Assembly (NCBI RefSeq): GCF_017348835.2
Contig: NZ_CP071375.1
Source: Escherichia coli
Lineage (GTDB): Bacteria > Pseudomonadota > Gammaproteobacteria > Enterobacterales > Enterobacteriaceae
Length of the DNA: 64,000 nucleotides
Direction: 5' to 3' (one strand)
Shown one piece after another: positions 51,001 to 54,000 of this stretch. How positions within the stretch are numbered: the first letter of the stretch is position 1; each line of letters opens with the position of its first letter. Position numbers: made by a program.

Positions 51001-54000
51001 TGCAGCCGGGCAAACTCCCTTACACTTGCCGAATCCGGCAATGTCGTTTTTACCTCGCGCAGTAACGACCGTGAGGCAATCATCAACTGCCCCCAAAGTT
51101 TTCGCGCTTCAACGTAACGGGCGTAACCGGCATTATTACGAAAACCAAGAAAAATGGCGATGGCGACACCGAGAATGCTGAACGGTGCGAGGGTGAATTT
51201 GATGCCCAGATGCGTGTACCAGGGCAGCATGAAAATAACAGCGATAGAAAAGAGAAAATTGAGTAGTAAGCGCGAGGATATCTTGGATAATACTGAGCCA
51301 TGCCAGACAAAAATACGGCGCAGCCAGTGTTGTTGTGGACGAACAATCATGGTTATCTTCAGGCGTGGAAAAGTCGCCCTATTAAACGTGATTACGATCA
51401 CATTCTCAAGACGCTACTTACAAATTACCTACAAGCTTACAATATTAACAGGCGCTGCATGTGGCACCTGTTAATGATAAAGGCACATAGGATGTTGTAA
51501 CTAATATGGTGCAATAAGAAACCCGGTCGAAACCGGGTTCAGAGTATTAGCACAACGGGCGTACAGCTTCGCGCATCCCTTTTTCGAGAATCGCATCCAG
51601 GTCATTAGCAACCTGCTCGACCAGACCAGGCACTTGCGTCAGGTCCTGCTCCCAGTGGTCTTTTTCTGCCAAAACAATGGCTACCAGTTCCTGGGTACCG
51701 ATAACACGGTCACGATACTGGCTCCAGAGTTGCTGATAACGTTCCAGCCAGTGTGCATCGTCCTGTACCGGATATGTTTCTCCGTTACTCTCACCGCGAT
51801 AGAACGCAATCAATGCCGCTAATGCGAAAGTAAGGCGCGCCGGAAGTGTGCCGTTTGCCTTCTGCCCTGCCAGCAGCTGCGGCAGGATGCGGGTACGGAA
51901 CTTGGTCATACCGTTGAGCGCGATAGACAGCAGCTGATGCTTAATGTACGGGTTACGGAAACGCCCGGTGACTGCACTGGCGAAAGATTCCAGTTCATCA
52001 CGAGGCAAATCCAGTACCGGAATAATTTCTTCGTAGATGGCTTTCTCAACGAATGCGCAAATTTCAGCATCGTTCATCGCTTCACCTACGGTATCCAGCC
52101 CTGCCTGGAACGCCACCGGCACCAGCGCGGTGTGTGCACCGTTGAGTATTGCCACTTTGCGTTCTTTATACGGTTTAATATCGTCAACAATCAGCACGTT
52201 GAGCGGATATTTGTCCAGACGCAGTTCAGTCGCTAAGGATTTCGGCCCCTGAATCACAAACAGGTAAAAGTGTTCAGCGGTGTCGAGGAAACCATCGTGA
52301 TAACCCAGTTCTTCTTCCAGTTTAGCCACTTCATCGCGCGGATAACCGGTAACGATACGGTCCACCAGCGTAGAACAGAAGCTGTTAGCCTGATCCAACC
52401 ATTGAATAAATGCTTCTGGCAGTGCCCACTCTTGCGCATAGCGCAGCACCAGTTCACGCAACGCGTCGCCATTGTAGTCGATCAACTCACACGGAATAAT
52501 GATCCAACCTTTATCCAGCGCACCGTTGAAATGGCTAAAGCGTTCGAACAGCAGACGGGTCAGTTTTGCGGGATAACTTACCGCTGGCGCGTCATCGAAT
52601 TTATCGCCCGCATGGTAGCTGATACCCGCTTCGGTGGTGTTAGAGAAAACAAAGCGCATTTCCGGGTTGTGCGCCAGTTTCAGGAATTCATCGTATTCAC
52701 TGTAGACGCTGATTTCACGATTAACCGAGCGAATCAGACGCGCGTCGCTGACCGCTTCCCCCTTCTCATTCAGGCCACGGATAATGGTGGTGTACAGACC
52801 ATCCTGCGTGCTCAGTGACGGCGGGAATGAAGTTTCAATCGGACGAACAACGACCACGCCAGAATTCAGATCGGTGTGCTCATTCAGGAGATCTATTTGC
52901 CAGTCAACAAAGGCGCGCAGGAAGTTACCTTCACCAAACTGAATGATACGTTCTGGATACTGTGCACCGGGAAAATCGCGACGATTTAGTGTTTTCACAA
53001 TGGGTTCCCTTCTGATTAGTCATACAACCTGTTTGAATTGGTTCGACAGGTTAGCAAACTTTAATACGCCTAACCCCTGTTTTGATCAACTCCTGATGAT
53101 TAATGAGCAGTTTTATGAGAAAAGTGTGGCGCGGATCATGGTTTTATCGAGGAAACACGCCTTTTCTTAGATCATAAAGTGGTAGAACACATTGCATTTA
53201 AATCGCGCAGAATGAATAAAGATGTCAGACAACTTCCTCACCGTAACGCATAGTGCTGGTACGGTTGCGCCCATCTTTCTTCGAGCGATACAGACACGTA
53301 TCAGCTTCGACCATCAATTTATTAAAGTCATCGGTCAGCGTTCGGTACGATGCGCGACCACTACCGACGCCAATACTTACCGTGAGATAAAGCGTTTTTT
53401 GTTGCCAGGTGAATGGTTGCAGTTCAACGCCTTTACGGATTTTTTCCGCCATTAGCAGACCATCGACAGGATTCACCGACGGCACTGCAACAGCAAATTC
53501 TTCGCCGCCCATGCGCGCCACCAGCCCCTTATCACCGACAATCTTCTGAATATGCCGGGCAAACACGCTTAACACTTTATCGCCACATTCATGTCCATAG
53601 TTATCGTTAATACTTTTGAAATAGTCGATATCAAGCAGCATGACAGTCAGATGTTATGTCTGTTTCAGCGATGGACTTTTCAGCGCCTCATAAAGGCCGG
53701 ACCGTGAGTAAACCTGAGTCAGAAAATCAAAGTCGGCTCGCAGCGCAACTTGCTTCATTAGCGAATTGATCGCTGCCACGCTAAAAGAAACCATAATTGG
53801 GCATATCGCCATCGTGGCAATACCGAGACGTGCGGAGAACATTTCCGGAATGGAGAACGGCGAACCGACCGAGATATCAATCACCGAATTTGCCACCAGT
53901 ACGATTTCCACCGCACCGGTGACAAAGGTCAACAGACATGTTACCTGCGGCGTATAGCGCACTGCACACCAGATTAATGCAGGCAGCGGGAACGCCAGAC

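Follow-up and report, generated by a model that had tools for sequence, protein, structure and literature searches.

The dgcF locus in the window

Within the window, the whole 64-kb stretch of E. coli DNA that was analysed, one reading frame on the minus strand is interrupted by a single in-frame stop codon. Translation of 54643..53222 on that strand reads the whole 1419-nt frame of the gene as one, and an ORF scan places two ORFs, of 329 and 138 aa, in this same frame. The upstream ORF has DFDFLTQVYSRSGLYEALKSPSLKQT as its C-terminal end, then TAA; four sense codons (HLTV) follow the stop before an ATG (Met335) at 53641, 12 nt past the stop, the minus strand reading AAA CAG ACA TAA CAT CTG ACT GTC ATG CTG CTT GAT ATC GAC across this stretch. 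Past Met335, the frame includes RMGGEEFAV and closes with EEVV and the native stop. The first-pass annotation had reported an in-frame ochre codon at 53654..53656 in dgcF, and on retranslation its coordinates, residues and ORF lengths all proved correct. The features of the locus are:

53225..54643, minus strand: dgcF (yneF) pseudogene; frame of 472 codons, closed by the native TGA stop and broken at codon 330
53654..54643, minus strand: upstream ORF of 329 aa, comprising a hydrophobic N-terminal membrane module and the first 27 GGDEF residues (A303-T329, including D306-F-L-T309)
53654..53656, minus strand: premature ochre codon TAA at codon 330, CAA (Gln) in orthologues
53225..53641, minus strand: 138-aa ORF downstream of the stop and in frame with it, starting at Met335, with the DID metal-site and GGEEF active-site motifs and the remaining GGDEF fold, minus the N-terminal part of the domain
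53261..53737, minus strand: GGDEF domain (repaired-protein residues 303-461), cut in two by the stop
53495..53509, minus strand: GGEEF active-site (A-site) motif, residues 379-383, intact in the translation but downstream of the stop

On its upstream side the gene is flanked by glsB (308 aa) and yneG (119 aa), and on its downstream side by uxaB (483 aa); the order glsB-yneG-dgcF-uxaB is likewise annotated in F2_81, XH993 and PE164, so that the chromosomal position is conserved. A 1601-nt query over the locus finds matches in 5,414 of 5,426 complete E. coli genomes at 95-100% identity; in 4,186 complete genomes the identity is 97-100% over the 1601 nt, and it reaches 100% across the 1601 nt of the F2_81 locus. 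From this neighbourhood and from the 99% identity of annotated dgcF orthologues to the window gene, the gene is dgcF (yneF), the identity first proposed for it. Over its full 1419 nt the frame aligns colinearly with the intact XH993 dgcF (472 aa), and the two ORFs are therefore not chance neighbours. Some gene callers output separate 329-aa and 138-aa proteins here; annotation should give one pseudogene, not two genes.

Two promoter-like sites, each with a GATAAT -10 hexamer, closely precede the dgcF start at 54646-54704 on the minus strand; one of them scores 10/12 and ends 2 nt before the ATG, and the other carries a TG extension and lies ~30 nt upstream. The native start shows weak Shine-Dalgarno (SD) pairing (-3.0 kcal/mol). 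According to Richter et al. (2014; PMC4287979), full-size yneF is expressed very weakly and in a mainly RpoS-dependent way, and encodes a diguanylate cyclase (DGC) whose A-site is intact and which lacks an I-site; the weak SD is consistent with this reported very weak expression. A terminator scan between dgcF and uxaB returned no terminator-like site.

The stop codon lies inside the GGDEF domain

For the domain searches, the dgcF protein was used with codon 330 repaired to Gln. Pfam PF00990 matches the repaired protein at residues 303-461 over the full length of the model (positions 1-161 of 161, i-E = 3.3e-40) and TIGR00254 matches residues 303-463. Solved structures give 48 matches at E <= 0.001, all of them GGDEF-domain proteins; WspR and PleD are among the best, and DgcZ and DosC are also included. 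The stop thus falls 27 residues into the domain, and the earlier statement that it bisects one domain, as opposed to separating two genes, holds; the DxLT stretch (D306-T309) is found before the stop and the DID and GGEEF motifs after it, exactly as had been claimed. As a result, no single polypeptide of the window allele would carry a complete GGDEF domain: the GG[D/E]EF motif is present, yet only in the part of dgcF that would be untranslated or reached by a restart. An RxxD I-site, sought five residues upstream of GGEEF, is absent, GDKG standing there instead.

Pfam gives no match for the N-terminal module of DgcF. Residues 18-255 show a weak colinear NCBIfam match (E = 7.6e-4, 17 bits) to positions 20-255 of PRK09776, the model of DgcE (YegE), which we take to be the MASE1 membrane region of DgcE. 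From this similarity, the module may be a very distant MASE1-like sensor. According to Richter et al. (2014; PMC4287979), the module resembles no other E. coli protein. AlphaFold2, run on the single repaired DgcF sequence of 472 aa, gave a model too poor to use (mean pLDDT 38, pTM 0.21); the extent of the restart fragment was judged from Pfam and TIGRFAM model coordinates.

A single substitution in an otherwise intact gene

Compared with the dgcF of XH993 (WP_000558032.1, 472 aa, annotated as 'sensor domain-containing diguanylate cyclase'), the window gene shows nine nucleotide differences (1410/1419 nt identical): six synonymous changes, the two missense changes L180F and Q267E, and CAA>TAA at codon 330. 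By this alignment, the lesion is a single C>T transition turning Gln330 (CAA) into an ochre codon (TAA) in an otherwise intact gene, the mutated base being 53656 (T on the coding strand, A on the plus strand). Neither half of the frame has acquired a secondary frameshift or stop, which suggests that the lesion is young.

CAA occupies codon 330 in all 12 loci examined outside the clone, and an intact 472-aa dgcF CDS is annotated in each of the seven full-length RefSeq genomes checked individually. Orthologues normally have an unbroken frame and a sense codon here; a split organisation is therefore not the norm for this gene, in line with the initial reading of the stop as a lesion. K-12, which had been named as an alignment reference, is a poor one, its own dgcF being a 5'-deleted remnant annotated 'missing N-terminus'. 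We also considered the plainer RefSeq label 'diguanylate cyclase' as a pseudogene marker and rejected it, as all six loci checked with that label are intact 472-aa CDSs. Since every individually checked locus is intact, point lesions are probably a small minority among full-length dgcF genes.

Frequency of the allele and the clone that carries it

Of the 5,403 complete E. coli genomes that match a 61-mer centred on the stop, only two match it exactly: F2_81, from a pig in Australia, and PE164, from a pig in China. Such an exact count would miss genomes with the T plus a second SNP inside the 61-mer. With the C restored, the 61-mer is exact in 2,143 records; another 3,264 records differ somewhere from the wild-type 61-mer, and those sampled all have CAA. 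In both carriers PGAP annotates dgcF as pseudo, with the remark 'internal stop', the product label in F2_81 being 'sensor domain-containing diguanylate cyclase'. Shared sequence is 99.98% identical between the window and each of F2_81 and PE164, yet the window is structurally distinct from both: F2_81 is without ~10.7 kb found in the window (the lsr operon and an autotransporter pseudogene), and PE164 has an extra 1,488 bp in hipA::IS3 that is absent from the window. Three assemblies of one clone thus agree on the T, and the base calls at 53654..53656, for which confirmation had been advised, are reproduced in independent assemblies. Beyond complete genomes, the exact 329-aa product occurs in 31 public contigs (47 index blocks, from NCBI, Logan and ENA), and the three loci sampled among them all have TAA at codon 330. 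Taken together, these matches place the allele in one small clone, to which it is confined, and which is apparently pig-associated.

Other decayed or intact genes in the window

At least five genes of the 64-kb window are decayed (dgcF, ddpA, hipA, an autotransporter gene and yneK). The ddpA gene (D,D-dipeptide ABC transporter binding protein; 2460-4010, minus strand) has an in-frame internal stop at codon 203 and is annotated as pseudo, 'internal stop', in F2_81 and PE164; ddpX beside it (4024-4605) is intact in the window and truncated in F2_81. The hipA toxin gene (~35697-36899, minus strand) is broken into an N-terminal fragment, a ~390-bp IS3-family remnant and the last ~410 bp of hipA; the IS3-family element is complete in PE164, the window being 1,488 bp shorter, and hipA is intact in F2_81. 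The hipB antitoxin gene (~36842-37108) is apparently intact in the window. An autotransporter gene with an ESPR-type signal peptide (37319-40414, minus strand) is split into three ORFs of 335, 190 and 504 aa; the autotransporter at the same locus in PE164 is annotated as a frameshifted or partial pseudogene, and in F2_81 the region is deleted together with lsrK-lsrB (window ~37538-48208). The yneK ORF (58579-59472, plus strand) encodes 297 aa versus 371 aa in F2_81, and is annotated as frameshifted in PE164. As for other c-di-GMP genes, dosC-dosP (4863-8669, minus strand), an oxygen-sensing DGC and phosphodiesterase pair, is intact in both members, and the loss of c-di-GMP genes in the window is therefore specific to dgcF.

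Decay of dgcF in other E. coli and Shigella

Partial copies of dgcF are common: 1,228 of the 5,414 matching complete genomes (~23%) cover less than 80% of the 1601-nt query, and those with partial coverage show a K-12-like pattern among the matches listed. One such genome was inspected; its dgcF is annotated 'missing N-terminus', and the alignment to the intact gene begins only at nt 434. In K-12 itself, yneF has lost its 5' end and shows no expression (Richter et al., 2014; PMC4287979). The exact 138-aa ORF is present in 572 contigs, and ten loci sampled from these yielded seven other independent dgcF lesions around codons 300-335, a clustering near codon 330 that is an ascertainment effect because the loci were chosen through the exact 138-aa ORF. 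These lesions, in E. coli and Shigella, are:

R302* (TGA)
delG at codon 300
delG at codon 314
S325* (TAG)
+A at codon 326
Q328* (TAG)
IS insertion at ~nt 1001-1005

Two of the seven sit atop a K-12-type 5' deletion. Inactivation of dgcF has thus occurred repeatedly, by deletion, nonsense change, frameshift and IS insertion, a pattern consistent with a gene that is dispensable or sometimes counter-selected.

A probable recent null allele of dgcF

Our comparisons make it highly probable that the window carries a recent, lineage-specific null allele of dgcF, created by a C>T nonsense change in the GGDEF domain. Translation from the native start would halt after a 329-aa membrane protein holding only the first helix-forming stretch of the GGDEF domain. 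This product would be without metal-, GTP- or GGEEF-site residues, and it is for want of these catalytic residues that we expect it to make no c-di-GMP. The last 138 codons would not be translated to a useful level and would provide an incomplete domain even if they were. Hence, we infer both the loss of enzymatic function and a downstream part that goes unexpressed, the outcome being that one weakly expressed DGC would have dropped from the c-di-GMP network of the clone. The locus is, in other words, an ordinary recent nonsense pseudogene, already flagged 'internal stop' in public annotation.

What such a loss could mean for the cell is suggested by work on intact dgcF. Deleting it in CFT073 leads to less biofilm in glycerol medium and less adherence to bladder cells, both of which are complemented by an exogenous DGC (PMC3484386), and S. 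flexneri expressing dgcF has more c-di-GMP, invades less, forms smaller plaques and is more sensitive to acid (Ojha et al., 2024; PMC11327459). DgcF is not mentioned in PMC10459773. By inference from these studies, the clone with the stop would have lost the small c-di-GMP contribution of dgcF. The importance of this is small beyond strain-level bookkeeping, given that a single weakly expressed diguanylate cyclase is lost.

Could the interrupted frame still work as a functional split gene, with reinitiation at Met335 giving a soluble 138-aa GGDEF fragment of residual cyclase or regulatory activity, and/or with a 329-aa module that is functional by itself? An ATG 12 nt past a stop makes termination-reinitiation mechanistically possible in bacteria, and the ATG is in frame and near the stop. 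The 138-aa ORF still matches TIGR00254 over positions 41-166 of 168 with 118.7 bits, and retains DID, GGEEF and the later motifs; the restart product would be without residues 303-334, that is, about the first 40 of the 168 GGDEF model positions, and also without the membrane module. GGDEF domains act as dimers and are brought together by N-terminal modules; the fragment has lost the module that serves this dimerisation, which counts against a functional split. So does the start itself: the best anti-SD duplex in the 20 nt before Met335 is +0.5 kcal/mol, where random 20-mers drawn from the window average -1.9, and no Shine-Dalgarno complementarity is found within these 20 nt. The first-pass annotation had suggested that a downstream Met could produce a membrane-less partial GGDEF fragment; the in-frame Met335 and the 138-aa ORF do exist, but with no SD and with ~40 first model positions missing, and judged from the sequence a usable 138-aa restart product would be a weak idea, a formal possibility. 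A precedent is nevertheless provided by Shigella, where some DGC pseudogenes with nonsense codons raise c-di-GMP when overexpressed and where dgcE and dgcQ of S. flexneri, which both carry nonsense codons, each give rise to several proteins (Ojha et al., 2024; PMC11327459). These active pseudogenes mean that a nonsense codon is not automatically null in the DGC class. However, the Shigella stops precede the GGDEF domain and leave it whole downstream, whereas the window stop lies inside it. In addition, the window allele is limited to one small clone and the lesions near it include frameshifts and an IS insertion, a combination that points to decay rather than to a selected split architecture. 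We thus regard a functional split gene as improbable, and are slightly more sceptical still of the idea that the 329-aa membrane module and/or the reinitiated 138-aa GGDEF core keep a c-di-GMP-related role. If they did, there could be residual or dominant-negative activity, or the orphan membrane module could bind a partner, and the finding that degenerate DGCs still work in Shigella would be extended to a stop inside the catalytic domain.

A leaky stop, with readthrough or suppression of the UAA giving some full-length DgcF, has in its favour the base after the codon, a C (TAAC), TAAC being among the weaker termination contexts in E. coli. UAA is recognised by both release factors and its basal readthrough is very low, which argues against leakiness, as does a scan of the 64-kb window that detected zero tRNA genes, suppressor or other. 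Full-length products have been reported, unexplained, from the nonsense-bearing dgcQ and dgcN of Shigella (PMC11327459). Nor does the codon behave as a programmed recoding site: it is not conserved in orthologues, the stop occurs in one clone only, and it is a UAA, versus the UGA and UAG used for Sec and Pyl. Leakiness of the stop therefore seems to us very unlikely. A sequencing or assembly error over a true CAA would fit a one-base difference from nearly all other E. coli, but the same T is read in two complete genomes, sequenced independently and originating from different continents, as well as in the structurally distinct window, it recurs in draft, Logan and metagenome contigs, and the change is a substitution, not a homopolymer indel. 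The allele is real, base-call error being excluded for practical purposes, and the chance that the codon is truly CAA is negligible. A recent nonsense pseudogene of dgcF remains the explanation that we favour.

Comparison with known systems

Among known systems, the dgcE and dgcQ genes of Shigella resemble the window dgcF in combining a premature nonsense codon with a nearby downstream in-frame Met; in S. flexneri dgcQ, the stop is codon 312 and the Met is residue 314 (PMC11327459). They differ from it in the position of the stop, before the GGDEF domain, with the whole domain available downstream, where the window allele offers no complete domain on either side. The activity of the Shigella genes was seen under overexpression.

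The closest relatives are other states of dgcF itself. The intact DgcF of XH993 (WP_000558032.1) shares with the window gene the yneG-uxaB locus, the frame length, the hydrophobic module, the GGEEF motif and the lack of RxxD, and is set apart from it by CAA versus TAA at codon 330, plus L180F and Q267E. The other point-inactivated alleles lie within ~35 codons of the window stop and leave an identical 138-aa ORF; their positions and types differ. Finally, the K-12-type remnant is, like the window allele, a natural loss-of-function state of dgcF, reached by a different route: in K-12, 433 promoter-proximal nt are deleted and the GGDEF domain is unbroken, whereas the window allele keeps an intact 5' end and promoter region and has its GGDEF domain interrupted by a point mutation.
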